Shown: positions 1,940 through 61,808 of the stretch, in pieces
Position numbering within the stretch: the first letter of the stretch is position 1
Layout of the letters: each line of letters starts with the position of its first letter
Source: Enterobacteria phage vB_EcoM_IME281
Sequence record: MH051913
DNA length: 64,000 nucleotides
Direction: 5' to 3' (one strand)
Position numbers and translations under genes: made by a program
The notes under the pieces: model-generated
The model's database searches: none
Seen by the model: only the letters and a program-made list of their open reading frames with translations
What the model was told of the DNA's origin: nothing

Positions 1940-2467
1940 ATGACGCAGGCATTCAAATTGAACGTACAAGATGTAACACTACCGGGCATCCATATTCCGG
2001 TCTCAGACGTCCCAGGATCGACCCAAGGTATAAACCGTGCTAAACTGCCAGGTTCTACTGTAGAATTCGACCCTTTGATTGTGAACTTTCTTGTAGACCG
2101 CGAGTTGAAATCATGGCTGGACGTTTATAAATGGATGCTATCATTAAACAACTATGTAACACATGAATCTGAAGCCTGGCATCCTAAAGGTCAGCCTGAG
2201 GCTATCACCCTCCACATTCTTGATAACAACAAACAGAAAATCGTAATGAGCATTCATTACTACGGTGGTTGGCCATCCGACCTTTCCGAGATTCAGTACT
2301 CTTATAAAGAAGATTCCGACCCTGCGATAATCGCTACAGCAACATTCAACTTCAAATCGTTTGCTGTAGAAATAGATGGTACAATAGTTACAGGTCGTCC
2401 ACAAATTGATTCGTATGCCGAACAACGTGTGGCTCGTATGTCTATGCATCCATCTATGAGAAAATAA
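1940..2467 (+). CDS. 3: tail completion/sheath stabiliser gp3-like (175 aa)
   Basis: Internal ATG (M22 of track ORF 1877) gives T4 gp3 size (176 aa); synteny upstream of gene 1; start uncertain (1877 alternative). Confidence 0.4.
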   Translation: MTQAFKLNVQDVTLPGIHIPVSDVPGSTQGINRAKLPGSTVEFDPLIVNFLVDRELKSWLDVYKWMLSLNNYVTHESEAWHPKGQPEAITLHILDNNKQKIVMSIHYYGGWPSDLSEIQYSYKEDSDPAIIATATFNFKSFAVEIDGTIVTGRPQIDSYAEQRVARMSMHPSMRK

Positions 2468-3220
2468 TGAAACTAATATCAATTGTAGGAATCAAACGTA
2501 GCGGTAAGGATACCGTTGCTAACTATGTAATTGAGAATATGGATTCCGTAAAATTCCAACTCGCTGGTCCTATTAAAAAGTATCTGGCTGAAGCTTATGA
2601 ATACATATCTGATGACCCTGTATTCGACCGTAGCTATATGCCTAAACTTGATTTTAACTGTTTTGAAGGTATCGGTTACGACCGTGAAGAAATCATTCCT
2701 TTAAAACCATATGATGTGGTTGATATTTTTGAAAATGCTATTGTTAAGCTGAATAATATCCTTCCTATTCCCGGAATTGATGTTCGTACCGCATATCATT
2801 ATGGTCTTACCCCGGTCCAATATCTGTCTGAAGAAACAAAAGACCAGCTATTTGAAGTAATAAATAAAAATAACAATTGGTCAGTACGTCGTCTCATGCA
2901 GACCCTTGGGACTGATATTATTGTTAACCAATTTGATAAGATGTATTGGGTTAAGTTGTTCGCTTTAGACTATTTTGATAAAATATACTCTGATGCGAAA
3001 TACTATGTCGTACCTGATGTTCGTCAAACACATGAAATTGATTCGCTCAGAGCGATGGGTGCTACGATTATTCATGTAGTTCGCGCTGAAACCGGTCAAG
3101 TACAAGACTCGCACATCACTGAAGCGGGTCTACCAATTTTACCTGGTGACGTTGTTGTTGAAAATAACGGCACTCTTTCTGAACTATACACTACTATTGA
3201 TAAATTATTAGGAAATAAAA

Positions 3221-3228
<8 letters not shown>
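2467..3228 (+). CDS. 1: deoxynucleoside monophosphate kinase gp1
   Basis: P-loop GIKRSGKDT near N-terminus; strong similarity to recalled T4 gp1 (QLAGPIK, WSVRRLMQ, MYWVKLFALDY, ATIIHVVR). Confidence 0.85.
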
Positions 3229-10663: not shown

Positions 10664-10950
10664 ATAAAATTGAAATTGAAATCCCAGAACACAACGACGA
10701 GAAATCTGCAGAAAAGGCTATCTATGCTCTTCTGAATAAAGTGAATACCATCGAACATGAATGTGAAGCTATTGCCGATAAGTATGGTATCCAATTCGGT
10801 ACCGGTGATTATGGTTCAGGCCGTACATATTATCCTGTCGGTTATGAATGCTCCCAGTGGTTTAAAGATGAAATTGAAAACAACGGCGGTGAAGTTGAAA
10901 ATGGTGTCGTTACAGTTGGTGCTTGGGTCTCCTCTTCGGCAATGTGCTAA
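10660..10950 (+). CDS. small protein, WVSSS-C tandem paralog 1 (96 aa)
   Basis: Ends GAWVSSSAMC; first of five tandem paralogs. Confidence 0.55.
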   Translation: MNKIEIEIPEHNDEKSAEKAIYALLNKVNTIEHECEAIADKYGIQFGTGDYGSGRTYYPVGYECSQWFKDEIENNGGEVENGVVTVGAWVSSSAMC

Positions 10951-10959
10951 GGAAACGCT

Positions 10960-11241
10960 ATGATGAATGATTACCGTAAAAATAAAGAGCTGGCTGAAGC
11001 AGTAAATGATATTCATAAAGCTATTCGTCGTGCTGAGGAAATTGCAGACAAATATGAGACTCATTTTAATATATACCCTGCTCGCGGTATGGGCGGTGAC
11101 TATTATTCTCCTGGCGCCCTGAAAGCCGACCTTGCTCACTGGGAAGAATACGGTGAAGCTCAGTACGCTATTGTAAACCAACATGATTACACTACCAGCC
11201 TAGAAAATGGTGGATGGGTATCCTCTTCTTCTGAATGTTAA
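10960..11241 (+). CDS. small protein, WVSSS-C tandem paralog 2 (93 aa)
   Basis: Ends GGWVSSSSEC; shares ADKY motif with paralog 1. Confidence 0.55.
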   Translation: MMNDYRKNKELAEAVNDIHKAIRRAEEIADKYETHFNIYPARGMGGDYYSPGALKADLAHWEEYGEAQYAIVNQHDYTTSLENGGWVSSSSEC

Positions 11242-11250
11242 GGAATTATT

Positions 11251-11448
11251 ATGTCTCGTGAACTAGATTGTGCAATCCGTACTGCCGCGGCGGCTATTGA
11301 AAACGTTATCCAGATTTGCAAAGAAGAACGTGAAGAAGCTGATATCTATATCGATGGTCAACGTGACCTGGAACGTCATATCACGCTTTATAACGGTTGT
11401 ATTACTATTAGTGGTACCTCTTGGGTGTCCTCCTCTTACGAATGCTAA
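11251..11448 (+). CDS. small protein, WVSSS-C tandem paralog 3 (65 aa)
   Basis: Ends TSWVSSSYEC; TAAGGA stop/RBS junction. Confidence 0.55.
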   Translation: MSRELDCAIRTAAAAIENVIQICKEEREEADIYIDGQRDLERHITLYNGCITISGTSWVSSSYEC

Positions 11449-13823: not shown

Positions 13824-14039
13824 ATGAAACTTTCTAACCAAGCAATCAACATGTTAAACGAAGTTCGTGCAGCTGGTGCTAAATGCCTGATGGTTAACAC
13901 TCGTGACGGTGACCTTCGTCAAGCATTTGGTGAATTGAAATCTGCTGACCTGGTTAAATGTTCAGTTGGTATTGGTAACGCACTTCGTGTATCCTTATCC
14001 CCTAAAGGTAAAATGTACTTTTCAACAAAAAGTAAGTGA
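13824..14039 (+). CDS. hypothetical protein (71 aa)
   Basis: ATG after GGAG in cassette leader (TGGAGAATAAAATG). Confidence 0.5.
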   Translation: MKLSNQAINMLNEVRAAGAKCLMVNTRDGDLRQAFGELKSADLVKCSVGIGNALRVSLSPKGKMYFSTKSK

Positions 14040-14049
14040 GGAAAATATT

Positions 14050-14739
14050 ATGAACGGCCCGAAAACTTTTAATTCTCAAGCTCGTGCAGTCGGTGGTTTT
14101 GCTCAAGATATCAGTAATGATATGATTAAAAATGAGCCTATGTTCTTTAATTGTGATGCTTATTTTGCTCATAAACACGGCGGTCCTATTACTCGTAGCT
14201 TTATTGAAAACCTGCCTGAAGATTGGCAATGTGGCCCTGATATTGTATTTGATTCCCGTGTACACATGTTAATGCCTGGCTGGTACCCTGCAATTCCAGG
14301 CTTCCACCATGATGATGTACCACGCCCGGATATTCCGGTCGGTCAACACTTTATTACCGCAGGGCAACCTGATTATGATAATCCTCGTTACCATTCTGAA
14401 CATATTCTTGGTCTTGTTAACGCTGATGTGTGTCCTACCCATTTTGCAACCGGAACTGCACAGTTCAGTCGGATTCCTGAAGGCGAACTTATCTATCGCC
14501 AGTGGCATAAAGAAGTTCTGGAAAAAATTGAGTCCAATGAATTAACCAAGTGGGATGCTCCTGACCGCACGTTACTCCAGTTTGATTGGCAGACATGGCA
14601 TACAGGTTCTCGTGCAGTAAGTAATGGGTGGCGCTGGTTTGGTCGTGTGTCTCGTAATACAGACCGTGTTAAAAAGATTACAAATGAAATCCGCGTTAAT
14701 GCTCAAGTATATCTGGAATTCCCTATGGAGGGCTGGTAA
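14050..14739 (+). CDS. hypothetical protein (229 aa), His-rich motifs
   Basis: GAGGAAAA RBS; FHHDD and HSEH motifs could indicate a metal-binding fold; weak. Confidence 0.45.
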   Translation: MNGPKTFNSQARAVGGFAQDISNDMIKNEPMFFNCDAYFAHKHGGPITRSFIENLPEDWQCGPDIVFDSRVHMLMPGWYPAIPGFHHDDVPRPDIPVGQHFITAGQPDYDNPRYHSEHILGLVNADVCPTHFATGTAQFSRIPEGELIYRQWHKEVLEKIESNELTKWDAPDRTLLQFDWQTWHTGSRAVSNGWRWFGRVSRNTDRVKKITNEIRVNAQVYLEFPMEGW

Positions 14740-24703: not shown

Positions 24704-25162
24704 ATGATTATGATTATCAATGCAAACTCTTGGCACGCTAAACTTCATGACCGTTTTTATGACAGTCATTCTCGACCGCACTCTTTATGTGCTTACTTCT
24801 GGAAAATGGTTTGGGCTTGTTTTGCTTGTGCTGTTGTTGCAGGTAGTACGCTTTTTGGATTAACTGTTGCAGGTGTTGGTGTATTAGAGCATTTCTTTGT
24901 ATTAAGTACCCCTGTTCTGTTGAGTCTAGGGTTTGTTTTAGGATTGGTTGCAATAGCTCTTATTATTGCGCTATCCATTGGTTTGGCATTCGGTGCGATG
25001 AATTTACACGCATGGTATGATGCCCGTAGAGAAGAAAAGGAATGGCAACGTATTCAAGCTGAGCGTGAAGGCCGAGAAACTAAAGAAAACATCGTTATTC
25101 AATACATTAAAGCTCGTAAATCTAAGGTCTGTCCGGTAATCCACTTCGAGGACAAAGAATGA
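24704..25162 (+). CDS. integral membrane protein (152 aa)
   Basis: Multiple hydrophobic helices. Confidence 0.5.
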   Translation: MIMIINANSWHAKLHDRFYDSHSRPHSLCAYFWKMVWACFACAVVAGSTLFGLTVAGVGVLEHFFVLSTPVLLSLGFVLGLVAIALIIALSIGLAFGAMNLHAWYDARREEKEWQRIQAEREGRETKENIVIQYIKARKSKVCPVIHFEDKE

Positions 25163-26169
25163 GAACAGTTATGAAAGGCTACTTCGGTAGTCACCTTTAT
25201 GGAACAAGTACTCCAGAATCTGATGTTGATTTTAAAGAAATCTTTGTTCCACATCCGCGTGATATTCTGTTAGGTACGGCTATGAACCATACCAACCTGA
25301 ATACGAATAACACTGCTTCCAAAAACACTAAAGATGATGTTGACCACGAGCTTTACAGCCTGAAATATTTCTTTAAACTGGCGGCAGATGGCGAAACCGT
25401 TGCTCTGGATATGCTCCACACTCCACCTGAAATGGTGGTTAAATCTGATTTACCTGGTGTATGGAAATTTATCCAAGACAATCGTTCTCGGTTCTATACG
25501 ACTAACATGAAAGCCTATTTAGGGTACGTCCGTAAGCAAGCTTCTAAATATGGTGTTAAGGGTTCTCGACTAGCTGCACTGCGTGGTGTACTGGCTATTG
25601 TTAACCAGATTCCTGAACAGTGGGTCGATTATCAAGAAGGAATCCCTGATAGACTTCGTCGTACTAAGGTAGAAGATATCAAACACAGACTCCCTGAAAA
25701 TGAGTTCTGTGAATGGGTATTCCATAACCATGAGAAAACAGGTCCGCAAACGTTCTATACTGTTCTAGGACGTAAGTACCAAACTACTTTGTCTTTAATC
25801 GAGCTCAAGCAATCTCTGAATAAGCTCGATGCTGAATATGGTGAACGTGCCCGTAAAGCTGAAGCTAACGAAGGTATTGACTGGAAAGCTCTGAGCCATG
25901 CTTATCGGGCTGGGTATCAATTGTTGGAAATCTACCAAACAGGCGACCTGGTATTCCCATTGCGCGAAGCCTCTATCATTAAGCTGATTAAGGCCGGTGA
26001 ACTTCCATTTAAAGAGGTCCAAGAACTTCTTGAAGACACTGTTGATTTAGTCGAAGTACTGGCTATCCAGGCTCATAAGAACGGTATGCCTGCTAAGGTA
26101 GATATGAAGTTCTGGGACAAGTTTGTTGAAGAGGTATACCTTGACAACCACAACTCTTATTATCGATAA
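25159..26169 (+). CDS. nucleotidyltransferase-fold protein (336 aa)
   Basis: N-terminal YFGSHLYGTSTPESDVDF fits the hG[GS]x9-13DhD pol-beta-type NTase signature. Confidence 0.55.
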   Translation: MRTVMKGYFGSHLYGTSTPESDVDFKEIFVPHPRDILLGTAMNHTNLNTNNTASKNTKDDVDHELYSLKYFFKLAADGETVALDMLHTPPEMVVKSDLPGVWKFIQDNRSRFYTTNMKAYLGYVRKQASKYGVKGSRLAALRGVLAIVNQIPEQWVDYQEGIPDRLRRTKVEDIKHRLPENEFCEWVFHNHEKTGPQTFYTVLGRKYQTTLSLIELKQSLNKLDAEYGERARKAEANEGIDWKALSHAYRAGYQLLEIYQTGDLVFPLREASIIKLIKAGELPFKEVQELLEDTVDLVEVLAIQAHKNGMPAKVDMKFWDKFVEEVYLDNHNSYYR

Positions 26170-26176
26170 CGAAGAA

Positions 26177-26365
26177 ATGAAGGTCTTTTTATCATATGGA
26201 AGACCCCATAAAACCCGACGTTGGTATCTTGAAGCTGTCTGTAAAGAAACCGGACGTCGAGTCAATATCAAGTACGTGTGCAAACCTACGCCTAAACAGA
26301 CAAGACAATTTGTTAACTGGGCTATAAATGATATACGCTTCCATAATTTTTGGAGCGCAATTTAG
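26177..26365 (+). CDS. hypothetical small basic protein (62 aa)
   Basis: M19 of track ORF 26123; followed by terminator; weak RBS. Confidence 0.3.
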   Translation: MKVFLSYGRPHKTRRWYLEAVCKETGRRVNIKYVCKPTPKQTRQFVNWAINDIRFHNFWSAI

Positions 26366-26386
26366 GAACCTTCGGGTTCCTTTTTT
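26365..26386 (+). terminator. rho-independent terminator
   Basis: GGAACC-TTCG-GGTTCC plus T6. Confidence 0.7.
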
Positions 26387-26405
26387 GGGTTTAGTGCAAA
26401 AAAGA

Positions 26406-26434
26406 GTTTACACCCTCGTAGAGCATGTTATTAT
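26406..26434 (+). promoter_or_regulatory. early promoter/stem-loop cassette
   Basis: GTTTAC, 17 nt, TATTAT; degenerate core GTTATTATGGACCTATCAA. Confidence 0.55.
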
Positions 26435-26471
26435 GGACCTATCAAATCTACTGAGTGAAATGGAGAATATA

Positions 26472-27452
26472 ATGTTAACTATCAAAATCAACAAAGGTAT
26501 CTATCGCGGTAATGTAATCTCCGGTACGTTCATGAGTTCAGGTAAAACCTGGTTCCCTAATAAAATTCATGAATCCGAAGCTCACCTCGGTGATGGTAAG
26601 GTATTTGTACAGATTGATGGTGTTGAACGTGGTGTATGGGTGTTCAAATGTGACGTTGAAATGGAAGGTGCTGAAGCTCCTGCAATGGTTACTGAATCCG
26701 CTGAAGAAATGAAACATCGCATCAACAAACGTTTTAAAGTAATGAACATGATGACTAACGGAATCATCGATGGTAAAATTCGTTCCCTTATCATCTCTGG
26801 TGCCGCAGGTATTGGTAAAACTTATTCTTTGGATAAAGCATTACAGAATGCCCACGAAAATGAAACTATCGAATATAAATCAATCAACGGAAAGATTAGT
26901 GGAATCGGTCTTTACGAGCAGCTTTGGAATAACCGCGGCCCTAATAGTGTTCTTCTTATCGATGATGTTGATGTATTCTCTGATATGGATATCCTGAACC
27001 TGTTAAAAGCAGCATTGGATACCGGTGAAAAACGTAAGGTGTGCTGGAGCACTTCAAGTTCTTATCTCGATGATAAAAATATCGATAAAGAATTCGAATA
27101 CGAAGGCACCATCGTGTTCATCACCAACGTTGATATTGACCGTGAATTAGAGCGTGGAACTAAACTTGCTCCGCACCTCCAGGCTTTAGTATCTCGTTCA
27201 GTTTACTTAGACCTCGGAGTTCACTCTAACGAAGAGATTATGGTTCGTGTTGAAGACGTTATCCTGTCCACTGATATGATGCAAAATCGAGGTCTGACCG
27301 ATGCTGAGACTTATCAAGCACTGGCATGGATGAAGGCTAATGTATCTCGTCTTCGTAACGTATCATTACGTACAGCTCTTTATCTGGCGGACTTCATTGC
27401 CACCGATAAAAATGACTGGAACGAAATTGCTGAAGTTACACTTCTGAAATAA
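26472..27452 (+). CDS. AAA+ ATPase-like protein (326 aa)
   Basis: Walker A ISGAAGIGKTY, Walker B VLLIDDVD; M49 of track ORF with GGAG RBS. Confidence 0.6.
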   Translation: MLTIKINKGIYRGNVISGTFMSSGKTWFPNKIHESEAHLGDGKVFVQIDGVERGVWVFKCDVEMEGAEAPAMVTESAEEMKHRINKRFKVMNMMTNGIIDGKIRSLIISGAAGIGKTYSLDKALQNAHENETIEYKSINGKISGIGLYEQLWNNRGPNSVLLIDDVDVFSDMDILNLLKAALDTGEKRKVCWSTSSSYLDDKNIDKEFEYEGTIVFITNVDIDRELERGTKLAPHLQALVSRSVYLDLGVHSNEEIMVRVEDVILSTDMMQNRGLTDAETYQALAWMKANVSRLRNVSLRTALYLADFIATDKNDWNEIAEVTLLK

Positions 27453-28448: not shown

Positions 28449-29294
28449 ATGTCACAGGCAATTAATCAAATTCGTTCTGAAGTTAAAAAAGTTGTTAAAT
28501 TTGGTCGTATTCCTAGTTCTAAAGAAGTGGTTGAAAAGGTCCTATATATGATGTGGGACAAGTTCAATGTTTGTACTGTTAAAGATGACTTCACTAAAAT
28601 CTTTGACAAGACTAAAGGTTCGTTTACGTTAGAAGACCGAGTCATGAAAACCCTTCGTAAAACGGGTATGTTGTCTCGTGCTAATGCCAAAATTATTCTT
28701 AAAAATTATAACAAAGGCTACGACCTCTATGGTCGTTTAATCCCGGCGATGTCATTTGATGAAGTTGTTCAAGACCTTCATGCCAACCAACGACGTCTAC
28801 TGGCGCTTGGCGCTCGACTTGCAAAAGGTCAAGATAAGCAAATGCCATTTAAGACTAATGGTTCGGGTGATTGGATTATCTTTAATATTGTTAACCACCC
28901 TGGAAATGAAAATGAGTACACCATTTCAACTTTTAGTGGTTGCCAATATGACAACTGGAAGTTCCATCTGCGCTTGGCCCTATCTGAATTAGAACAACAC
29001 AGTGTTCTTAGTTTTGGTGATGCTGAAACTGGAGTAGGTCAACGTATTAAACTTTATAAAATTAAAGACCTGGCTGAAGAGCATTCAGAACAAGCTCCTA
29101 AAATGGAACCTGTACCAGTGCGAAGCAATGAGAAACATCAAGCCCAGATTGAGTATTTTAGCAATTTGCTTACTTGCTTGAATGTTACAATCCAACAACA
29201 AGATGATGAGATTTTCCGACTCTCTGGTCTGAATGCCAAAGCTAAGGCTGAACGCCAGAAATATATCGATATCCTAAATCTTCTTAAGGATTAA
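28449..29294 (+). CDS. hypothetical protein (281 aa)
   Basis: GAGGAAA RBS. Confidence 0.5.
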   Translation: MSQAINQIRSEVKKVVKFGRIPSSKEVVEKVLYMMWDKFNVCTVKDDFTKIFDKTKGSFTLEDRVMKTLRKTGMLSRANAKIILKNYNKGYDLYGRLIPAMSFDEVVQDLHANQRRLLALGARLAKGQDKQMPFKTNGSGDWIIFNIVNHPGNENEYTISTFSGCQYDNWKFHLRLALSELEQHSVLSFGDAETGVGQRIKLYKIKDLAEEHSEQAPKMEPVPVRSNEKHQAQIEYFSNLLTCLNVTIQQQDDEIFRLSGLNAKAKAERQKYIDILNLLKD

Positions 29295-29595: not shown

Positions 29596-30477
29596 ATGAA
29601 CATTAAAACACGTAAAGAATACTCTATATACGACCATGACACTACTCGTCGTATCGCTATTGACCGGTTAGCAGACTTTGGTTATATTTGTAATGGTAAT
29701 TATACTTATGGCGTAGGACGTAAAGGAACTTATATCGGTTCTTTGAACGATTATTGCCGTTGCCCAGCCCACCTGTTTGGTGCAACATTGCGGGCTAATA
29801 TCAAAGACCTCTTGGCTACCGCAGGACGTATTTCTACGGTTCCTGTTAATATCAAAAGTATTAATTTTACGGCTCGTAACCTAGTCATTAATATTCTGCC
29901 TGATGGTATTCAAGTTCGTTTCCGTCCCACCTCAAAAGGCAATAAAGCCCTTCGTGAAGCATTCGAAACCTTATTCAGGGAAGCAATGACTCGTATTAAG
30001 GCAGTAGAATCATATAAAGTTACAACCGATGAATATGCCGATTGTTCTGGGCGAGCAGATGCAGTTTATTTTAATGTTAAACTAGCTCGCGAATATCTTT
30101 TATCTTATGCCCCTTATCAACCCCAACAAAAGGACCCACAAATGGAACGTCGTATATCTATCGCTACCTCTACAGTATCATGTGACAGTGTAGGCCAGTA
30201 TGCAGCCTATGACAAATTCAAAACCACTGCTGTGCCTAGTCCATTCAATTCCGAACCATATCATTGGAAAATTAAACCTGATAATTCTTTGGTTGTTACT
30301 AACCCTACGATGAAACCTATTGAGACCTATTATGCAGATAGCATTCAGGAATCAATCCACCGTTTAAATGGTCAGATTGAAGATGAGAAAAAGAGCATTC
30401 AAGACGTATTGACCCGCATCAAGAATATGGAAAACCAGCGTGACAAGCTCAGCGCGGCACTATTAGCTCTAAAATAG
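29596..30477 (+). CDS. hypothetical protein (293 aa)
   Basis: M13 of track ORF 29560; C-terminal coiled coil. Confidence 0.5.
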   Translation: MNIKTRKEYSIYDHDTTRRIAIDRLADFGYICNGNYTYGVGRKGTYIGSLNDYCRCPAHLFGATLRANIKDLLATAGRISTVPVNIKSINFTARNLVINILPDGIQVRFRPTSKGNKALREAFETLFREAMTRIKAVESYKVTTDEYADCSGRADAVYFNVKLAREYLLSYAPYQPQQKDPQMERRISIATSTVSCDSVGQYAAYDKFKTTAVPSPFNSEPYHWKIKPDNSLVVTNPTMKPIETYYADSIQESIHRLNGQIEDEKKSIQDVLTRIKNMENQRDKLSAALLALK

Positions 30478-30478
30478 T

Positions 30479-30508
30479 GTTTACATCCAAGGACGGATGG
30501 AGTATAAT
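30479..30508 (+). promoter_or_regulatory. early promoter
   Basis: GTTTAC, 18 nt, TATAAT. Confidence 0.55.
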
Positions 30509-30536
30509 CCTTTTATCAACTACTGAGGAGAATATC

Positions 30537-31547
30537 ATGACCCGTACTGAATACATCAATGCCTTTACTAAGTATATCACTGACAATACCCCTCCATTAA
30601 CACCGTATGAGGTGATAGTTTCTAATATCAATAAATGGGTAGACCAAATTGATAAAGCATTATCCAATTGTTTCAAAGATGAAATCGAAAAGATTGCAGG
30701 CCGTTTGTTTATTTCTGATATCGTAGATACATTTAAAGGTTCTCGACTGCTTTCACGGTTGGTCAATAAGGATATCCTTTCAGAGTTTGGCAAAGAGAAA
30801 CACCCAGGTTCCAGCCACGTTGTTAGCTACCAATGGTTTGGTGATGTTTTAAAAAGCTATATCAAAATGAAAGGTACCGACCCTAAGGGCTTATTTCCTT
30901 TACGTTGGGCCGGTGAATTTAAGGCTAACTCCGCATTAATTCTAAAAGCAGCAACCAAAACCTTTGTAAAGGGTGATTGTCGTACTATCCACCCTATGGC
31001 TGATGGCATGATTAAAACAAACAACTATAAAGGGAAGGTGCTTATTTCTATTATTTGGTCGCCTAGTTGGAAACCTAAAGAAGTTGAAGTTTCGAAATAC
31101 CAAGATATTTCCTACAATACCCTGAATATTGTAGAACAAGCTTTAGCTTTGATGGATACAGTAGAGAAATATGAGATTCAAGAAATCAACCACCACTTAG
31201 GCTGGAAAGGATATGAAGTTTTAGTAACAGTTCGCGAAATCAAATGCCCTGTTCCAAAAACCGACGCTGAAATTTACCAAGAAAAATGTGAGGAAATTGT
31301 GAACACTGATAAAGAGCCTGCAACCTTAGAAGACTTGATTGATGAGCTGAATGGCCCAAGGCTACTGGCCTGTGCACCAATTACTAAATCCAAGCCGCCA
31401 GAAGTAGTTGCTCTGGAAAAAGCATATAAAGATGCCCTTGCTATCAACAAAAAACTGACCGGACAATATACTGCTGCCAAGAAACTTTGGGAAGAGTCTA
31501 CCAATCGTCTGGATAAACTGGAACAAGCCCTGGAGCTGTTGAAATGA
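30537..31547 (+). CDS. hypothetical protein (336 aa)
   Basis: M21 of track ORF (GTG 30477); GAGGAG RBS; C-terminal coiled coil. Confidence 0.5.
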   Translation: MTRTEYINAFTKYITDNTPPLTPYEVIVSNINKWVDQIDKALSNCFKDEIEKIAGRLFISDIVDTFKGSRLLSRLVNKDILSEFGKEKHPGSSHVVSYQWFGDVLKSYIKMKGTDPKGLFPLRWAGEFKANSALILKAATKTFVKGDCRTIHPMADGMIKTNNYKGKVLISIIWSPSWKPKEVEVSKYQDISYNTLNIVEQALALMDTVEKYEIQEINHHLGWKGYEVLVTVREIKCPVPKTDAEIYQEKCEEIVNTDKEPATLEDLIDELNGPRLLACAPITKSKPPEVVALEKAYKDALAINKKLTGQYTAAKKLWEESTNRLDKLEQALELLK

Positions 31548-49297: not shown

Positions 49298-49534
49298 ATG
49301 GAAGCTTTAATCGTTAGTGCTGGTGTTTTAGGATTCGGTTCTCTGGTTATTATGTTCATTGGTTACTTTTTACCATGGATTCTGGCCCTTCTGCGAGGCA
49401 CTCGTAGCAATGTCGGAATCTTCTTCCTTAATCTCCTGTTAGGGTGGACGATGATTGGTTGGGTAGTGGCTTTAATCTGGGCTATCGTCGCTGAACGTAA
49501 ATCAAACGCACAAATCATTATCGTTAAACAATGA
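49298..49534 (+). CDS. imm: superinfection immunity protein Imm-like (78 aa)
   Basis: Two TM helices; immediately downstream of gene 43 as T4 imm; positional. Confidence 0.5.
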   Translation: MEALIVSAGVLGFGSLVIMFIGYFLPWILALLRGTRSNVGIFFLNLLLGWTMIGWVVALIWAIVAERKSNAQIIIVKQ

Positions 49535-49668
49535 AGATAATTATTTTATTTCTTATAATGGCTGCCTTTACCGTTTATTGGGCAGTGGCAATTCCTCCAA
49601 TGATTCCAACATTAATCATGGGATGGATTATTCTTATAGCACAAATTAAGTATAACTGTTTTAATTGA
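49531..49668 (+). CDS. small membrane protein (45 aa)
   Basis: Not in ORF track; ATGA overlap with imm stop; hydrophobic. Confidence 0.4.
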   Translation: MKIIILFLIMAAFTVYWAVAIPPMIPTLIMGWIILIAQIKYNCFN

Positions 49669-49675
49669 GGATATT

Positions 49676-50176
49676 ATGAAAAAGTTAATTATCGCAATGA
49701 GTATGCTCCTATCAGGTTGCGCAGTCCAATATGGTGATGCAGTTTCTGCTGATGAAGTTGGTAAAGCTCGTATCGCAGCTGAACAGAAACAATTCGACGG
49801 CGAAATGAAATTCCGTGCCGGTTCTGGACTTGTGTACACCCGAGCTAATAATCAATGTGGTAATAACTGTGCAAAATATGCTCAAAGGGAAATCGAATTC
49901 CAACGTGAACAAGAGTCTAAGCGTGAAGCGGTACTAGCCAAACACCAGGCAGAAATGAAGCGCCAAGATGATTTGTACAAAAAGCAGAAACTGTATGCCA
50001 TGTGTGTAAACCATATCAATCTACAGATTTCTGTCCACGAGGCTCGTTATTACGAAATGCTCGAAACCGAGAGCTTCGATAAGGCTCGTGATTATAAGAA
50101 ACAAATCAACAAGCTTAAGACCAAAGTGCCTGCTGCAGTAGAACAGTGCATGGAATACGGTAAAGATAAGATTTAA
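49676..50176 (+). CDS. putative lipoprotein with coiled coil (166 aa)
   Basis: Signal peptide with lipobox LLSGC. Confidence 0.5.
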   Translation: MKKLIIAMSMLLSGCAVQYGDAVSADEVGKARIAAEQKQFDGEMKFRAGSGLVYTRANNQCGNNCAKYAQREIEFQREQESKREAVLAKHQAEMKRQDDLYKKQKLYAMCVNHINLQISVHEARYYEMLETESFDKARDYKKQINKLKTKVPAAVEQCMEYGKDKI

Positions 50177-50237
50177 GCAATAGAAATTTATTAAAAAATA
50201 GTGTATAATGTACCTACATTCACTTGAGGAACAGATA

Positions 50238-51911
50238 ATGAAAAAGGTTGTTATTTTAGGCGCAGGTCTTGGCTCACGGTTGTATCCAATTACTAACGAA
50301 ATCCCAAAGGTATTGGTTAACTACAAACAACATACGGTATTAAAACATTTGTATGATTTGTATAGTAACCAATCAGATGAAATTATTCTGGTTATTCACA
50401 GCAAATTTAACGACCTCGTTAAAGGCTATATTAAATCCATTAACATGATTACTGGTGATAAGCCTAAATTCACTATTCGTAACGTTGATGTTGCTAATGG
50501 TTCAGCTCATGCTATCGATTGCATTGCCGAAGATATCATTGGCCATAATGTCCTGTTTAACTGGTGTGACATCATTCCTATCGGTCATAAAGTTGAATGG
50601 GGTAACGACTATTGTTATACCTATGGAACTGACTGTCGCTTTACATTTGAAGAACCGTACTTACGTGAAATTGGTACCGGTGGCGGTGTAGTTGGTTTGT
50701 ATCAGGTAGCCAATTGGACAGGTTTCGACCGTTCTAATTATGGCGAAGACCTTGCTGATAACCTGGATTCAATGGTCTATTTGACTGAACGTAAACTGGA
50801 TTTTGTAGTTGATGTCGGTGACAAATTGAAACTTGCCAAGGCCCATGAAGATTCTGAAATTAACCGTGAATTTAATAAATTAGAGTTCACCGAGAATCTG
50901 GCTATTAAAGTACCAACTAACGAATTAGGTAAAGAAATTCAATCTAAAGAAATCAATTGGTATAATTCTATTGATTCTGAATTCGTTCCTAGCATTGTAG
51001 ACTTTTCTCCAGGCGAATTCATTAAAATGGAACGTATCTTTGGTCGTACCATGGCAGATGCCTACCGGTTTATGTCCAAAGAAACTAAAGTCCTCATGGT
51101 TTATAAGGTCATTAGTGCATTACGTTCATTCGGTGGAACTATCGATAACCCGTCCGATGAGCAGTGGTATTCCGATGTTAAGAAAGAAGTATTGGACAAG
51201 GTCCTTATTCGTAATGCTTCTATTGCCGGATTGATTGAAGGCTTTGCTCCACAGGGCATTACCCATGTTAACGATTTCAAAGTAGGCGACCCCGAAAAAC
51301 TTCTCCGCCATGCACTAGAAATTCTGTCCGAACATAAAGAACCGTACCAACTTATTCACGGCGACCCGCACTACAGTAATATTATGTTGTCGGATGAAGG
51401 TGATATTAAAATCATCGACCCGCGTGGTTATTTTGGTAATAGTTCTAAAGGCCCTGCGATTTATGATGAAGCTAAGGTGCTTTATTCTATCGATGGCTAT
51501 GACAAATTTAACTCAGACCCTCTATGGGGTGGATTAACTCGTAACGGAACCCGTGTATTCGTTGATATCGAAAAGGTTATGCCTTTAGACGATATTCCTA
51601 TGTGCACATTTAAGCACAAGCTCTGGATTGCTGTTATTTGGATGGCTCTGGCAGGTTACTTTAAGAATAACCCTCTGAAAGCTCTGGGTGCTTATTATAA
51701 CGGTTTGTATCAACTGAGTGTGCTGCTTAAGCGGCATCCTCGTAAGCGTAAGCTTATCACAGGTGAATTTGTCGATGAAGTTCGTGACCCTATCACGGCT
51801 CAAATTATTACTCGTTGCCCTGATAAGTGGGTTTTGCTTGACCAGGAAACTGGTGTAAAATATAAACCTACAGGTTCTACTGAACTCCACAAACAATGGA
51901 AGAAAATTTAA
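50238..51911 (+). CDS. bifunctional sugar-1-phosphate nucleotidyltransferase / APH-type kinase (557 aa)
   Basis: N-terminal ILGAGLGSRLYPIT..PKVLV matches NDP-sugar pyrophosphorylase G-x-G-x-R signature; C-terminal LIHGDPHYSNIML..IIDPRGYFG matches HGDxHxxN kinase motif; GAGGAA RBS (M11 of track ORF). Confidence 0.6.
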   Translation: MKKVVILGAGLGSRLYPITNEIPKVLVNYKQHTVLKHLYDLYSNQSDEIILVIHSKFNDLVKGYIKSINMITGDKPKFTIRNVDVANGSAHAIDCIAEDIIGHNVLFNWCDIIPIGHKVEWGNDYCYTYGTDCRFTFEEPYLREIGTGGGVVGLYQVANWTGFDRSNYGEDLADNLDSMVYLTERKLDFVVDVGDKLKLAKAHEDSEINREFNKLEFTENLAIKVPTNELGKEIQSKEINWYNSIDSEFVPSIVDFSPGEFIKMERIFGRTMADAYRFMSKETKVLMVYKVISALRSFGGTIDNPSDEQWYSDVKKEVLDKVLIRNASIAGLIEGFAPQGITHVNDFKVGDPEKLLRHALEILSEHKEPYQLIHGDPHYSNIMLSDEGDIKIIDPRGYFGNSSKGPAIYDEAKVLYSIDGYDKFNSDPLWGGLTRNGTRVFVDIEKVMPLDDIPMCTFKHKLWIAVIWMALAGYFKNNPLKALGAYYNGLYQLSVLLKRHPRKRKLITGEFVDEVRDPITAQIITRCPDKWVLLDQETGVKYKPTGSTELHKQWKKI

Positions 51912-52294
51912 TGTCGCATCGAGTAGAAAATAAGCCACATTTATGTTTTGATATCGATAACACAATCACGATTTGGAACCATGACCGTGATTATGAGAAC
52001 TTTAAACCGGACACCGAAATGGTGTCCATGATTAATAAGCTTTATGATGAAGGGTACGAGATTACATTATTCACTGCCCGCGGCATGACTTCATGTGGCC
52101 CAGGTCGAATCTTGGTTGAAGTAGTTCCTGCATTGGTTAAGAACCTTGAAAAGATTGGATTGAAATATCATAATCTGCTTACGCATAAGCCGAGTTATAC
52201 TTTTATCATCGATGACCGAGCAATCCGTCCTGACCACTTTAAAGAAATGGTTCGTGAAGGAACTCTTGATAGTTATAAGGCCTATCATCCATGA
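51911..52294 (+). CDS. HAD-family phosphatase-like protein (127 aa)
   Basis: Motif I CFDIDNTIT; motif II-like LFTARG; TAATG coupling to upstream gene. Confidence 0.5.
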   Translation: MSHRVENKPHLCFDIDNTITIWNHDRDYENFKPDTEMVSMINKLYDEGYEITLFTARGMTSCGPGRILVEVVPALVKNLEKIGLKYHNLLTHKPSYTFIIDDRAIRPDHFKEMVREGTLDSYKAYHP

Positions 52295-52827
52295 ATCCAA
52301 AAATCATTGTTATAGACGGCCCGGATAATTCCGGGAAGTCCACTTTAATTAAAAATCTGTTATCCAATAAGAAATACCGCCTTATTGATTTTCCTAAAAA
52401 GATTAATGGCAAGTGTATTTCATTAGGAACTGATAACGATAAGGCTTTAGTTGAAACTCTGTATAAGTTTTTAGACCCTAATTTCGTTTATATCCTTGAC
52501 CGTGGTTATCCAAGTAATATTGTTTACTCAGGATTCCTTCGTGGTGAAATGGACCCTTATGTAGAACTGGAAGATTGGAAAGGGTTTAAATCCGAATTTA
52601 ACGTTATCGAGGTTATTTTAACTCGCAATCCATTAGACGAAGACTTCGAAGACGACCTTATTAAATTAACCAAAGATGAGTTCAACCTAACTATCCGGCA
52701 ATACGAAACATGTTTTGAAAACGTGTTTAAAATCTTAAATCATGACGGCCATAATAATTTGCTTAATGTTGATATGGTAGAATTAAAACGTCTGAACGAA
52801 TATATTGAAAATAAGGTGAATAAATGA
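52291..52827 (+). CDS. P-loop nucleotide/nucleoside kinase-like protein (178 aa)
   Basis: Walker A VIDGPDNSGKST near N-terminus, like thymidylate/dNMP kinases. Confidence 0.5.
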   Translation: MNPKIIVIDGPDNSGKSTLIKNLLSNKKYRLIDFPKKINGKCISLGTDNDKALVETLYKFLDPNFVYILDRGYPSNIVYSGFLRGEMDPYVELEDWKGFKSEFNVIEVILTRNPLDEDFEDDLIKLTKDEFNLTIRQYETCFENVFKILNHDGHNNLLNVDMVELKRLNEYIENKVNK

Positions 52828-53522
52828 AACACATTACCGCTGTTAGTTTTGAAAATGCATTTAAACAAATGAACGAAGAAATCCTGGAAGCTCCACAGTT
52901 TGCAGTTGATTCTCGTATCGGACGTTGTTATGAAATTGGTTCTGCTTCGGTAGAAGTACTGGATGCAAGCACCTATAAATTCACCGACCCACGTATCAAT
53001 CGTATTAGTTATGAATATGCCGAATCCTTTTGGAAATTTATGATTTCTGGTGGTACTGACGCTGCCGAAGCATTTAAGGAATACCCTAATGTTGCTAAGT
53101 TCATTGATAAGCCGAAAAGTGATGTATTGCCTGCAAACTTCAACACTTTCTATGGACCTCGAATTGTGGCCCAACTCCCAGCCCTACTTAAAGAGCTTAA
53201 AGAAAAGGCTAACTCGCGAAGAGTTGTGTTCCAGATTCTCCAAGAACAAGACCAAGCCCTCCTTGATTCTGACGAATCCTTAGAATATCCTTGCACCGAT
53301 TCGGTAACGTATTATATTCGTGACGGACGTTTGTATGCACACACCCATATGCGTTCACAAAACTGCGCCGTTGTTATGCAGCTGGATTTCTATCTGCAGG
53401 GTAAACTGATGGCATTTATTGCTGAACAGTGTGGTGTCGGTTTAGGTACATATTCCCACACCATGGTAAGTGCACACGTGTTTGAACGTGATTTTGACTA
53501 CGTCCGAGGTTTCCTGAAATGA
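52824..53522 (+). CDS. 42: thymidylate synthase-fold pyrimidine hydroxymethylase (probable dCMP hydroxymethylase)
   Basis: YPCT active-site Cys context and HMRSQNCAVVMQLDFY..HTMVSAHVF align with thymidylate synthase family (MYQRSCD..NIASY..DTHLY); occupies gene 42 position. Confidence 0.55.
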   Translation: MKHITAVSFENAFKQMNEEILEAPQFAVDSRIGRCYEIGSASVEVLDASTYKFTDPRINRISYEYAESFWKFMISGGTDAAEAFKEYPNVAKFIDKPKSDVLPANFNTFYGPRIVAQLPALLKELKEKANSRRVVFQILQEQDQALLDSDESLEYPCTDSVTYYIRDGRLYAHTHMRSQNCAVVMQLDFYLQGKLMAFIAEQCGVGLGTYSHTMVSAHVFERDFDYVRGFLK

Positions 53523-54412
53523 GTTTGTTTATCGTTCCTATTTTCAGTATGCGTAGTTACGAAACAGGTGAATATGCCGTCCTTAAGGACGGCAATTTTC
53601 AACTCCATTTAAATCGTGCTCGTCCAGGTGATTATCTGGCTTATCCTAGAAATTCGAGCGATATCAAAGAATGCATTGAATTATTCCCAGAACTGAATTT
53701 CGTACCACTTTGGTATAAAGAAAATGCTTATGAAACCCGTAAACATTTCTGGTCTGAAAATGAGTTTGTAGTCGATTCACTAATCGAATACTATGATTGC
53801 TCAGGACTGGTGACCGATATCACCGGTTATGATGGTGCTCATACTGTACAATTCAACTTTAATATCACAATGGACCCTGAAGTTCCTCGTTATTATATCG
53901 ACGAGTTCATTGATATTGATGTGGCTTCAGTTGAACGTTCACTTTATACTACAGTCTTGAATCAATGCCAGAAAGACGTCCTGGTGTCACGAGGTGCATC
54001 CTCTGATAAGATTTTTGTAGACCAAAAGGTAATTAATCCTGCAGTAATTGAGCGTTACTCTGAAGGTCTAGCGCCTATTAAAATTGATGGTATTTTCCAT
54101 CCATTCCGTATTTCGGATAAGTGTTATCAATTCGAAAGAGTTGTAGACCAAGCTGCCGCTGAAGGTGCTCGTCTTTATATCACCGACCCTAATGATTCAT
54201 TTAAGCGCGAAGACTATCGTCCTGATGTAGAGATTATTAAATTCAAACCGAGTAAGGTTGAATATTATCAAATTCTGAAATCAAGACCACATATCATTTA
54301 TCATGAGAACCCAGGTTTAGTATTCCATCCTGGTCTGGCTGAATTCATTTATTTCGGTGCCAATATTCATTCTGAATACGAAATGCCACGTTATGAGGAC
54401 GTAGTATGCTAG
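53519..54412 (+). CDS. hypothetical protein (297 aa), candidate DNA sugar transferase by position
   Basis: Sits where T4 has beta-gt, downstream of the NDP-sugar module; no glycosyltransferase motif recognised. Confidence 0.4.
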   Translation: MSLFIVPIFSMRSYETGEYAVLKDGNFQLHLNRARPGDYLAYPRNSSDIKECIELFPELNFVPLWYKENAYETRKHFWSENEFVVDSLIEYYDCSGLVTDITGYDGAHTVQFNFNITMDPEVPRYYIDEFIDIDVASVERSLYTTVLNQCQKDVLVSRGASSDKIFVDQKVINPAVIERYSEGLAPIKIDGIFHPFRISDKCYQFERVVDQAAAEGARLYITDPNDSFKREDYRPDVEIIKFKPSKVEYYQILKSRPHIIYHENPGLVFHPGLAEFIYFGANIHSEYEMPRYEDVVC

Positions 54413-54537
54413 GTCCTCTATTGCTTTTTATAGGTTTGGTATTATTCTCTTTCGGAGCCTTGCTATTATTAGTGTGGCTCGAGAAACGAGAAGTTCGGAA
54501 GATAGTCGATAAGGCTATCAACCGAGGAATTAAGTAA
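54406..54537 (+). CDS. small membrane protein (43 aa)
   Basis: Not in ORF track; GAGGAC RBS; hydrophobic. Confidence 0.35.
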   Translation: MLGPLLLFIGLVLFSFGALLLLVWLEKREVRKIVDKAINRGIK

Positions 54538-61245: not shown

Positions 61246-61286
61246 TATCTAACTTACTAACAAATGAATTGATAAGGAAAAATATA

Positions 61287-61808
61287 ATGGCTCATTTTAA
61301 TGAATGTTCTCAACTGATTGCCGGTGCCGATAAAGCTGAAGAAGCTTATTTTAATGCTCTGATTCACGAAGATAAAGACCCTCTGCAGGTTATGCTTGAT
61401 ATGCAGAAATCTTTGCAGGTTCGTTTAGCTAAAGATAAGCCTGAATATAATCGTCATCCTGATGATTTGGCCACTGCGGGTGAAGTTGTCGATTGGCTTC
61501 GCAACCAGAAAGATTATATTGATGACGAATTCCGTGAACTTATGACTTCTCTTGGTGGTATGAGCAATGGTGAAAAAGATGCATCTGCAGTATGGAAGCC
61601 TTGGAAAGCTCAACATGCTGAACGTCGTGAAACCCTGATTAACGATTTGTCTCCTGAAGACCAGCTCGAAATTAAATTCGAAATGATTGATATTCTGCAC
61701 TTTGTTCTGAATATGTTCCAGGGTCTTGGACTGACCGCTGAAGAAATCTTTAAACTGTATTACCTGAAAAATGCCGAGAACTTTGCTCGTCAAGACCGAG
61801 GTTATTAA
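61287..61808 (+). CDS. 56: dCTP pyrophosphatase gp56
   Basis: 173 aa; MAHFNEC..DKDPLQVMLDMQ..IDDEFRELMTSLG..SPEDQLEIKFE..EEIFKLYYLKNAENFARQDRGY matches recalled T4 gp56. Confidence 0.85.
   Translation: MAHFNECSQLIAGADKAEEAYFNALIHEDKDPLQVMLDMQKSLQVRLAKDKPEYNRHPDDLATAGEVVDWLRNQKDYIDDEFRELMTSLGGMSNGEKDASAVWKPWKAQHAERRETLINDLSPEDQLEIKFEMIDILHFVLNMFQGLGLTAEEIFKLYYLKNAENFARQDRGY

Follow-up and report, generated by a model that had tools for sequence, protein, structure and literature searches.

The window (the whole 64,000-nucleotide stretch of record MH051913) is assigned to a JS98-like T4-type coliphage of the genus Dhakavirus, on the basis of its identity to phage UP19 (99.5% over 49298-54537) and to JS98 (98%). 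Five co-directional, overlapping enzyme genes occupy 50238-54412 between the DNA polymerase gene and uvsX, in the order fusion, phosphatase, kinase, synthase, transferase (Table 1). The block 49298-54537 is 93-99.5% identical across 50 phage records and each enzyme of the cluster has more than 350 homologues in phages, so the open reading frames are not chance. All seven reading frames listed in a preliminary description of this DNA lie on the + strand where it had placed them, and every motif it named is present (GAGLGSR, HGDPHYSN and DIDNTIT, the P-loop GPDNSGKS and the PF00303 fold). It had also reported that alpha-gt and beta-gt are missing from the window; this holds, and extends to the rest of the UP19 genome. 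A T4-type gp42 was not found in the genome, which also carries denB, an alc-like gene and a dCMP deaminase. The promoter-like site just upstream of the operon is only suggestive, since sites of this kind are no commoner across the region than shuffling would predict.

Table 1. Features of the modification locus, with accessory genes from elsewhere in the window
Feature	Position	Strand	Size	Evidence
gp1-type dNMP kinase (accessory to the pathway)	2467..3228	+		Pfam DNMK PF21448, 1.5e-89
imm-like superinfection immunity gene	49298..49534	+	78 aa	Pfam Imm_superinfect PF14373, 5e-18; phrog_1039
Membrane ORF, RB69 gp54 homologue	49558..49668	+	36 aa	phrog_3610, 1e-19; annotated in JS98
Predicted lipoprotein	49676..50176	+	166 aa	Lipobox LLSGC; phrog_1754, 2e-52 (function-unknown family)
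Promoter-like site TAGAAA-17-TATAAT	50181..50209	+		Consensus scan, 10/12 matches; just 5' of enzyme operon
AfhE-like bifunctional fusion	50238..51911	+	557 aa	Pfam NTP_transferase and APH; full-length homology to AfhE
AfhF-like HAD phosphatase	51911..52294	+	127 aa	DIDNTIT; PDB 9IQW, E 7e-54; 1xpj, 4e-12
Thymidylate-kinase-like P-loop kinase	52291..52827	+	178 aa	GPDNSGKS; phrog_761 thymidylate kinase, 1.5e-39
Predicted 5-hydroxy-dCMP synthase	52824..53522	+	232 aa	Thymidylate-synthase fold PF00303, 3.6e-13
GT-B-fold glycosyltransferase	53519..54412	+	297 aa	Orthologue of RB69 gp46:47 and DLP3 gp79
gp56-like dCTP pyrophosphatase (accessory)	61269..61808	+		Pfam dUTPase_2, 4.7e-6

Two of the genes upstream of the operon had been listed together with the enzymes, and are rated here as neighbours only. 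The imm-like product is 43% identical to T4 Imm and its gene lies outside the pathway, as the lipoprotein probably does. The N-terminus of the latter, MKKLIIAMSMLLSGC, is a lipobox, and in Serratia phage LC53 the corresponding position holds a signal-peptide protein with 29% identity to it (E 1e-20). An additional small gene, overlooked previously, encodes a 36-aa membrane protein that is 53% identical to RB69 gp54 (tblastn) and 50-56% identical to small ORFs of LC53 and HY126. A gp54-type ORF is kept beside the cluster in RB69, LC53 and HY126.

The mechanical reading frame of the fusion begins at 50208. The ATG at 50238 was chosen as the start; it is preceded by a GAGGAA ribosome-binding site (50226-50231) and a TATAAT box, agrees with the N-termini of homologues, and gives the 557 residues reported earlier. 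For the HAD protein the mechanical start is 51896 and the chosen start 51911. The N-terminal domain of the fusion is a sugar-1-phosphate nucleotidyltransferase (Pfam NTP_transferase, residues 13-110, 3e-8), which also matches MurU/GlmU/GalU-type NCBIfam profiles; an APH-type sugar kinase domain (Pfam APH, residues 356-427, 1e-5) makes up the C-terminal part. The catalytic motifs of both, including GAGLGSR and HGDPHYSN, are intact. Over its full length the fusion is 42.7% identical to HY126 AfhE, 42.5% to the LC53 protein and 80% to that of Klebsiella phage Marfa; its identity to RB69 gp52:53 is 41-44%. The HAD phosphatase is 62% identical to HY126 AfhF and RB69 gp51 and matches the NCBIfam capsule biosynthesis phosphatase TIGR01689 (1e-14). 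The P-loop kinase gives weak cmk/dTMP-kinase matches in Pfam and NCBIfam, is 38% identical to RB69 gp45, 42.5% to the LC53 and 85% to the Marfa protein, and is also homologous to DLP3 gp78. It would phosphorylate a nucleotide, either 5-hydroxy-dCMP or a derivative of it, a role that is deduced in every phage.

The product in the beta-gt slot has the GT-B fold and gave no sequence match in Pfam, NCBIfam or PDB. It is 65-70% identical to RB69 gp46:47, 67% to HY126 GT1 and approximately 50% to the gp79-like first transferase of DLP3, bearing out the earlier suggestion of a transferase at this position, and putatively adds the first (base-proximal) arabinose. In the NAR 2026 study (PMC13326640) none of the purified transferases, used singly, arabinosylated 5-hydroxycytosine DNA in vitro, so the first transfer step, and with it the activity of the first transferase, is a deduction in every phage.

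The genes at 50238-54412 are very probably the Dhakavirus version of a pathway by which arabinosylated 5-hydroxycytosine takes the place of cytosine in virion DNA. The chemistry and enzymology of the relatives are published (PMC13326640, PMC13390438), and the clusters for which 5-hydroxy-dC is predicted explicitly include those of Dhakaviruses (Lee et al. NAR 2026, PMC13326640). The synthase matches PDB 9IQU/9IQC/9IR2 (phmmer, E 2e-125); 9IQU and the phosphatase match 9IQW both belong to the HY126 deposit series. The synthase shares 80% identity with RB69 gp48 and the HY126 enzyme but only 24.5% with T4 gp42. RB69 gp48 makes 5-hydroxy-dC, as proven by 18O2 labelling and LC-MS (PMC13326640). 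In an alignment with E. coli ThyA, T4 gp42 and RB69 gp48, Cys146 is kept and the changes L143E, N177D and D169N are seen. Position 169 is Asp in T4 gp42; the Asn found here is the criterion of verified 5-hydroxy-dCMP synthases, and occurs in all of them (PMC13326640). The preliminary description was thus right about the thymidylate-synthase fold, but the D169N signature and the identity to RB69 gp48 point to a flavin/O2-dependent 5-hydroxy-dCMP synthase, as in the relatives, and not to the hydroxymethylase it named. The same two features indicate that the sugar would be carried by an ether bond on 5-hydroxycytosine, not on the hydroxymethylcytosine (hmC) it had proposed. A pathway in which a dCMP hydroxymethylase gives hmC, the fusion salvages free arabinose and the sugar is set on the hydroxymethyl group was proposed in its product, arabinosyl-hmC, for RB69 by Thomas et al. 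2018, with homologues of ORF53_52c in JS98-like IME08 (PMC6024577), and L143E and N177D are also found in hydroxymethylases. It is nevertheless very improbable given residue 169 and the kinship of the synthase, and the RB69 hmC assignment is called erroneous in two later papers (PMC13326640, PMC13390438). Salvage from the free sugar, also part of the preliminary description, is not supported either: in HY126 arabinose-5-phosphate is the substrate of the kinase domain, and its 5-phosphate is stripped by the HAD phosphatase before the nucleotidyl transfer (PMC13326640, summarising He et al. 2026).

Which sugar Dhakavirus uses is less secure than which base, because the arabinose-5-phosphate isomerase that 270 other phage records have with the cluster is absent from the whole genome. 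The module of Dhakavirus, Marfavirus and Bragavirus could act on 5-hydroxycytosine with another entry substrate, or with a sugar other than D-arabinofuranose, as hexoses are found on this base in Rhizobium phage RL38J1 (PMC13326640). The fusion and P-loop kinase are approximately 40% identical to the characterised versions of RB69, LC53 and HY126, which share approximately 70% with one another (as between RB69 and LC53); the hydroxylase and transferase, by contrast, are equidistant across all lineages. The fusion forms its own clade with those of Klebsiella (80%) and Proteus (71%) phages, and the loci of Marfa and PM2 also have no isomerase beside the polymerase gene. Against this, neither domain of the fusion has lost its catalytic motifs, and the HAD phosphatase (62-68%) and transferase (64-70%) are close to those of the arabinose phages, which suggests shared intermediates and a shared donor. 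Hosts make arabinose-5-phosphate (KdsD/GutQ) for Kdo synthesis, so a phage isomerase is dispensable, and a different substrate or sugar is considered unlikely. That the sugar enzymes serve the cell envelope or capsule, for example by excluding superinfecting phages through changes to the LPS or capsule of the host, is hardly credible. The HAD protein does carry the database names 'capsule biosynthesis protein' and 'phosphoheptose isomerase', and the adjoining imm-like gene and lipoprotein act at the envelope, but those names are inherited labels, not tests. The sugar genes and the synthase gene form a single operon of overlapping genes between polymerase and uvsX; neither a signal peptide nor a membrane segment is seen in the transferase model; and homologous clusters were shown to yield arabinosylated DNA (PMC13326640, PMC13390438).

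In the arabinosyl-5-hydroxycytosine pathway, dCMP would be supplied by the gp56-like dCTPase (annotated in UP19 as a nucleoside triphosphate pyrophosphohydrolase), which lowers dCTP. The thymidylate-synthase homologue would hydroxylate dCMP at C5, using flavin and O2. Conversion of 5-hydroxy-dCMP to the triphosphate may involve the gp1 dNMP kinase, whose homologue RB69 gp159 makes the diphosphate (PMC13326640), possibly the thymidylate-kinase-like protein, and host NDP kinase, after which the phage polymerase would build it into DNA. With no isomerase of its own, the phage must depend on KdsD/GutQ of the host for arabinose-5-phosphate. The fusion is expected to phosphorylate this compound at C1, through its kinase domain, to arabinofuranose-1,5-bisphosphate, the HAD phosphatase to remove the 5-phosphate, and the nucleotidyltransferase domain to make UDP-arabinofuranose from arabinofuranose-1-phosphate and UTP. 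The transferase would then set arabinose on the 5-hydroxyl as an ether-linked sugar; as it is the only one in the genome, the predicted product is mono-arabinosyl-5-hydroxycytosine. The hydroxylase chemistry, the AfhE and AfhF activities and the structure of the modification are carried over from RB69, HY126 and DLP3; the papers that were read contain no report on the chemistry of Dhakavirus DNA, and the assignment is by homology. The preliminary description as a whole is therefore partly supported: orthology to the RB69/HY126 cluster favours its self-contained pathway with an NDP-sugar other than UDP-glucose, and homology favours arabinose, but DNA arabinosylation had been described before (Thomas et al. 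2018, Mahler et al. 2025, He et al. 2026, Lee et al. 2026).

The clusters of the Mosigviruses RB69 (gp45-gp55, gp3) and HY126 (Afh genes) likewise lie between DNA polymerase and uvsX, and have orthologues in Dhakavirus of the synthase, first GT-B transferase, HAD phosphatase, fusion, thymidylate-kinase-like protein and gp54 ORF. In Dhakavirus the gene set is smaller: neither the window nor the rest of the genome contains the isomerase (gp55), the U32-family protein (gp50), gp49 or the second transferase (gp3). Its kinase gene precedes the synthase and transferase genes instead of following them, and the imm-like gene and lipoprotein take the position of the isomerase. Klebsiella phage Marfa (Marfavirus) and Proteus phage PM2 (Bragavirus) have the Dhakavirus gene order, with no isomerase between polymerase and fusion, and share its divergent clade of AfhE and kinase. 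Both retain the U32-family protein (83-89% to RB69 gp50), and PM2 a chorismate-mutase-like ORF, which Dhakavirus has lost. No DNA chemistry of Marfa or PM2 was found in the published literature.

Acinetobacter phage DLP3 (gp76-gp83; tri-arabinosyl-5-hydroxycytosine) has the same set of synthase, kinase, phosphatase, fusion and first transferase but, unlike Dhakavirus, has three transferases and an isomerase; addition of its third arabinose was reconstituted in vitro with gp76 and gp77 (PMC13326640). The gene 42/alpha-gt/beta-gt system of T4 (glucosyl-hydroxymethylcytosine) shares the logic and genome position of the cluster: a thymidylate-synthase-fold enzyme acts on dCMP before replication, supported by a dCTPase and a dNMP kinase, and a GT-B transferase acts on DNA. 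T4 uses folate-dependent hydroxymethylation (D169) and host UDP-glucose, whereas Dhakavirus would use flavin/O2 hydroxylation (N169) and phage-made UDP-arabinose, and no homology between the transferases is detectable by sequence. Shewanella phage Thanatos, of a distant host and lineage, resembles Dhakavirus in encoding just one GT-B-like protein, of 300 aa, besides one fusion and one D169N-type synthase (TH1_060/TH1_062/TH1_063). Its authors reported TH1_063, the homologue of the 297-aa protein, as a UDP-xylose pyrophosphorylase and not a transferase, which counts against the pathway as assigned here; Thanatos DNA carries a single pentose.

All seven co-directional ORFs that the preliminary description placed in 49298-54537 are present as described, and the motifs GAGLGSR, HGDPHYSN, DIDNTIT and GPDNSGKS were all found in the translations; one further ORF of 36 aa, at 49558-49668, had been overlooked. 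An Imm_superinfect domain was detected in the region (Pfam, 5e-18). Each of the five enzyme genes shares 1-4 bases with the next, which indicates that they form a single translationally coupled operon. Escherichia phage UP19 has the block at 99.5% identity, the type Dhakaviruses JS98 and JS10 have it at about 98%, and it is carried by 50 phage records at 93-99.5% identity. The JS98 record has, since its deposition, labelled these genes 'similar to RB69 orf045c/047c/048c/051c/052c'. The 166-aa lipoprotein at 49676-50176 (lipobox LLSGC, phrog_1754) has a counterpart in Serratia phage LC53 which is 29% identical, lies in the same position right after the DNA polymerase and is annotated only 'signal peptide'. 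In RB69 the lipoprotein gene is absent at that position. Like the neighbouring imm, the lipoprotein may act at the envelope or in exclusion.

Arabinose on RB69 DNA was reported in 2018, when it was believed to be carried on hmC, and a split ORF53_52c fusion, with a homologue in the JS98-like IME08, was proposed as a UDP-arabinose enzyme (PMC6024577). The hmC assignment in RB69 was called erroneous by an independent 2026 paper (PMC13390438), and the arabinose is ether-bonded directly to a 5-hydroxycytosine base (Lee et al. NAR 2026, PMC13326640). A thymidylate-synthase homologue which binds flavin and uses O2 makes 5-hydroxy-dCMP, and between one and three arabinoses are then attached by GT-B transferases (PMC13326640). 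For phage HY126, the work of He et al. (Nat Chem Biol 2026), as related in PMC13326640, has the kinase/uridylyltransferase fusion AfhE phosphorylating arabinose-5-P at C1, the HAD phosphatase AfhF stripping the 5-phosphate, and the N-terminal domain of AfhE producing UDP-arabinofuranose; Mahler et al. (Cell Host Microbe 2025) are also cited there. Lee et al. name Dhakaviruses with other genera in which syntenic clusters 'strongly suggest' that 5-hydroxy-dC is made (PMC13326640). The system is already described, for Dhakaviruses too by comparative genomics.

The 232-aa enzyme, which has a thymidylate synthase fold (PF00303, 3.6e-13), was aligned with E. coli ThyA, T4 gp42 and RB69 gp48. The catalytic cysteine (C146 in ThyA) is invariant in this alignment. 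At ThyA position 169, where T4 gp42 and ThyA have Asp, the enzyme has Asn and reads MRSQN, the same as RB69 gp48; D169N is diagnostic of 5-hydroxy-dCMP synthases (Lee et al. 2026, PMC13326640). It also has Asp at ThyA 177 (N177D), the dCMP specificity residue, and Glu at 143 (L143E), where an acidic residue is a further criterion (PMC13326640). The enzyme shares 80% identity with RB69 gp48 and with its HY126 counterpart, and matches PDB entries 9IQU, 9IQC and 9IR2 (E 2e-125). A flavin cofactor and O2 as the oxygen source have been shown for RB69 gp48 and HY126 (PMC13326640), and on its diagnostic residues the 232-aa enzyme is predicted to be a 5-hydroxy-dCMP synthase of the same flavin- and O2-using kind. 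It had earlier been taken for a hydroxymethylase, with hmC as the base, a view that gives way to D169N and the close identity to gp48. A dCMP hydroxymethylase of the T4 gp42 type is contradicted by Asn169 and by an identity to gp42 of only 24.5% over 159 aa. In the window and the rest of UP19, td is the sole other thymidylate-synthase-family gene, and no T4-type gp42 was found elsewhere in this genome.

The fusion enzyme consists of an N-terminal sugar-1-P nucleotidyltransferase domain (Pfam NTP_transferase, 3e-8; MurU/GlmU/GalU-type matches in NCBIfam), in which the G-x-G-x-R loop GAGLGSRLYPIT is kept, and a C-terminal domain of the APH/choline-kinase type (Pfam APH, 1.2e-5). Its HGDxxxSN and IDPRG motifs are invariant across the window, Klebsiella phage Marfa, Proteus phage PM2 and LC53. 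It matches HY126 AfhE over the full length (42.7% identity over 576 columns, E 4e-143) and falls in a clade apart from it. In the account given in PMC13326640, activity with arabinose-5-P and UTP as substrates is reported for HY126 only. We regard the fusion as a putative arabinose-5-P kinase/UDP-arabinose pyrophosphorylase of the AfhE type. The length of 557 aa first given for it is right, with ATG 50238 as the start: the mechanical start of the long ORF is at 50208, where a TATAAT box covers the ATG, and it is ATG 50238 that is preceded by a GAGGAA ribosome-binding site and with which the N-termini of homologues agree. Promoter and terminator scans, used only for this choice of start codon, were not above shuffle expectation. 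With automatic ORF calling, the N-terminus could gain 10 spurious residues.

In the HAD phosphatase, motif I (DxDxT) is DIDNTIT. The protein is 62% identical to its HY126 and RB69 counterparts and matches PDB 9IQW (E 7e-54), which belongs to one deposit series with the HY126 structures; neither it nor the 297-aa protein had a significant match in Pfam. The P-loop protein falls in a thymidylate-kinase PHROG (1.5e-39) and is a homologue of RB69 gp45 (38% identity), its sequence having no match in the PDB. A dNMP kinase and a dCTPase are also encoded in the window, and their positions are tabulated with those of related genes in other phages. A weak tblastn match to RB69 gp51 at 61380-61601 (E 0.004) lies inside the gp56-like dCTPase gene and was judged to be chance.

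Supporting genes in the window, and U32-family and chorismate-mutase-type genes of other phages (L002, L010, L012 and L013 are the RB69, LC53, Marfa and PM2 sequences)
Feature	Position	Phage	Remarks
gp1 dNMP kinase	2467-3228	window	DNMK 1.5e-89
gp56-like dCTPase	61269-61808	window	dUTPase_2/MazG-like
U32-family gene (389 aa)	L002:5493-6662	RB69	gp50
U32/chorismate-mutase-type genes	L010:4796-6306	LC53	
U32-family gene	L012:8787-9947	Marfa	
U32/chorismate-mutase-type genes	L013:8826-9992 and 10937-11323	PM2	

The gene for the 297-aa protein is directly downstream of the synthase gene, syntenic with the gene for the first transferase in phages that arabinosylate their DNA, and its product is 65-70% identical to RB69 gp46/47, 64% to the LC53 protein and 67% to that of HY126. 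A search of the PDB with its sequence gave no match, and its identity as a transferase was recovered solely by a fold search, in which a confident model displayed the two Rossmann domains of the GT-B fold. It is probably the first arabinosyltransferase, of the RB69 gp46:47/DLP3 gp79 type, and the early suggestion of a transferase in the beta-gt slot agrees with this fold and orthology. Single purified transferases were inactive in vitro on arabinose transfer to 5-hydroxycytosine (PMC13326640). A homologue in Shewanella phage Thanatos, TH1_063, was assigned UDP-xylose pyrophosphorylase activity in a 2025 paper, in conflict with the transferase function indicated by the GT-B model here and by the NAR 2026 paper (PMC13326640).

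The hydroxylase and the transferase are equidistant among three lineages, whereas the fusion and the kinase of the window are far more diverged.

Amino acid identities of four cluster proteins among the window, RB69 and LC53
Protein	RB69 vs LC53	Window vs RB69/LC53
Hydroxylase	about 80%	about 80%
First transferase	about 65%	about 65%
Fusion enzyme	69-76%	41-44%
P-loop kinase	68%	38-42%

The clade of window-type fusions comprises 50 Dhakavirus, 23 Klebsiella (Marfa-like, 80%) and 6 Proteus (71%) records, with a further 287 fusion records at 42-45% or lower relative to the window type. The Marfa and PM2 loci have the gene order fusion, phosphatase, kinase, as in the window; the isomerase is absent next to their polymerase, and the U32 gene is kept (83-89% to RB69 gp50). 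A kinase right after the phosphatase and the absence of a phage isomerase go with the Dhakavirus/Marfa/Proteus clade of fusion and kinase, the two-clade split not being seen for hydroxylase and transferase. Among phage records, 270 carry the isomerase, with Klebsiella absent among the ten organism names listed; Escherichia accounts for 137 isomerase records, against 177 for the fusion enzyme.

The 389-aa cluster protein of most arabinosylating phages is a member of Peptidase_U32 (7e-11) and is conserved at 83-89% between genera. Its gene is accompanied, in LC53 and PM2, by one for a protein with a chorismate mutase type II domain (1.7e-11). Both genes are absent from the window, and within the group of Dhakavirus, Marfa-like phages and Bragavirus the U32-family protein is lost by Dhakavirus alone. 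U32 proteins acting with prephenate are known as oxygen-independent hydroxylases (RlhA, TrhP and UbiU/V), and the phage U32 protein may allow 5-hydroxycytosine to be made anaerobically. If so, DNA modification in Dhakaviruses would be strictly O2-dependent, which would be odd for a gut phage. Common to Dhakaviruses, Marfa-like Klebsiella phages and Proteus Bragaviruses is a sugar-activation module of their own, with a divergent fusion and kinase and no phage isomerase. That this module starts from another substrate or makes another sugar than the Mosigvirus pathway, combined with the idea on oxygen and U32 loss, is a rather unlikely proposition.

The first proposal of a pathway for a non-glucose sugar holds, the cluster being orthologous to the arabinose pathway of relatives. 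The sugar-activation route proposed with it, salvage of free sugar, does not; AfhE of HY126, in the work relayed by PMC13326640, starts from arabinose-5-P. A pathway in which free sugar enters and arabinose is placed on hmC fails, as the hmC reading is contradicted by the D169N signature and by the published chemistry of enzymes that are 80% identical. Another sugar or entry substrate would be in keeping with the divergent activation module but is disfavoured, since the phosphatase and the transferase are well conserved. What speaks for an envelope function of the cluster is database names, all of them inherited.

The modification puts a bulky base that bears a sugar in the place of every cytosine. 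Relatives are thereby protected from many type II restriction enzymes and CRISPR nucleases, and at the same time become open to attack by type IV enzymes such as BrxU/GmrSD (PMC13326640, PMC13390438). For therapy candidates of the JS98 group, DNA chemistry bears on host-range prediction, CRISPR engineering, and sequencing or cloning.

For the absent components, the remainder of the UP19 genome was assembled, and it and the window were searched as one. The arabinose-5-P isomerase (SIS domain, RB69 gp55) had no tblastn match in either (best E 4.1), and there is no SIS annotation in UP19. Nor was there a homologue of RB69 gp50 (U32-family), gp49 or the second transferase gp3, or of T4 alpha-gt or beta-gt; the best E in these searches was 0.075 (T4 alpha-gt), all other queries giving at least 0.46. 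T4-type gp42 and imm.1 were likewise sought in the window and the rest of UP19 and not found. The preliminary description had noted that alpha-gt and beta-gt are lacking in the window, and the rest of UP19 lacks them also. Over all ORFs of at least 80 aa, phmmer queries with gp3 of RB69 and with alpha-gt and beta-gt found no second transferase, and hmmsearch with the GT1 family profile gave a single match, the 297-aa protein. The gap between rIIA.1 and gene 39, in which RB69 holds gp3, is only 588 bp in JS98. Ten large unassigned ORFs of the window gave no glycosyltransferase in Pfam. The adjacent large ORFs 25159-26169 and 26328-27452 include an RlaP-type nucleotidyltransferase (PF10127, 1.8e-11) and a 374-aa protein that combines a P-loop/STAND-like NTPase region with an HTH_37 match at its C-terminus (Pfam). 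ORFs 13966-14739, 28449-29294, 30477-31547 and 7603-8220 (205-356 aa) had no Pfam match at E<=0.01, and are hypothetical in the UP19 annotation.

The missing isomerase, U32 protein and second transferase, taken with the divergent fusion and kinase, make the Dhakavirus cluster a minimal variant. The pathway should rely on arabinose-5-phosphate from the host, whose enzymes for it are KdsD and GutQ. Dhakavirus DNA should carry mono-arabinosylated 5-hydroxycytosine, as does that of Thanatos, which has one transferase (PMC13326640). What the window adds is modest, namely a documented minimal set of the five enzymes with gp1 and gp56, which suggests that the pathway can do without the additional isomerase, U32 protein and second transferase. 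Compared to the complete system of RB69 and DLP3, Dhakavirus is without the phage isomerase and the second (or third) transferase, but the supporting dCTPase and dNMP kinase are present here also.
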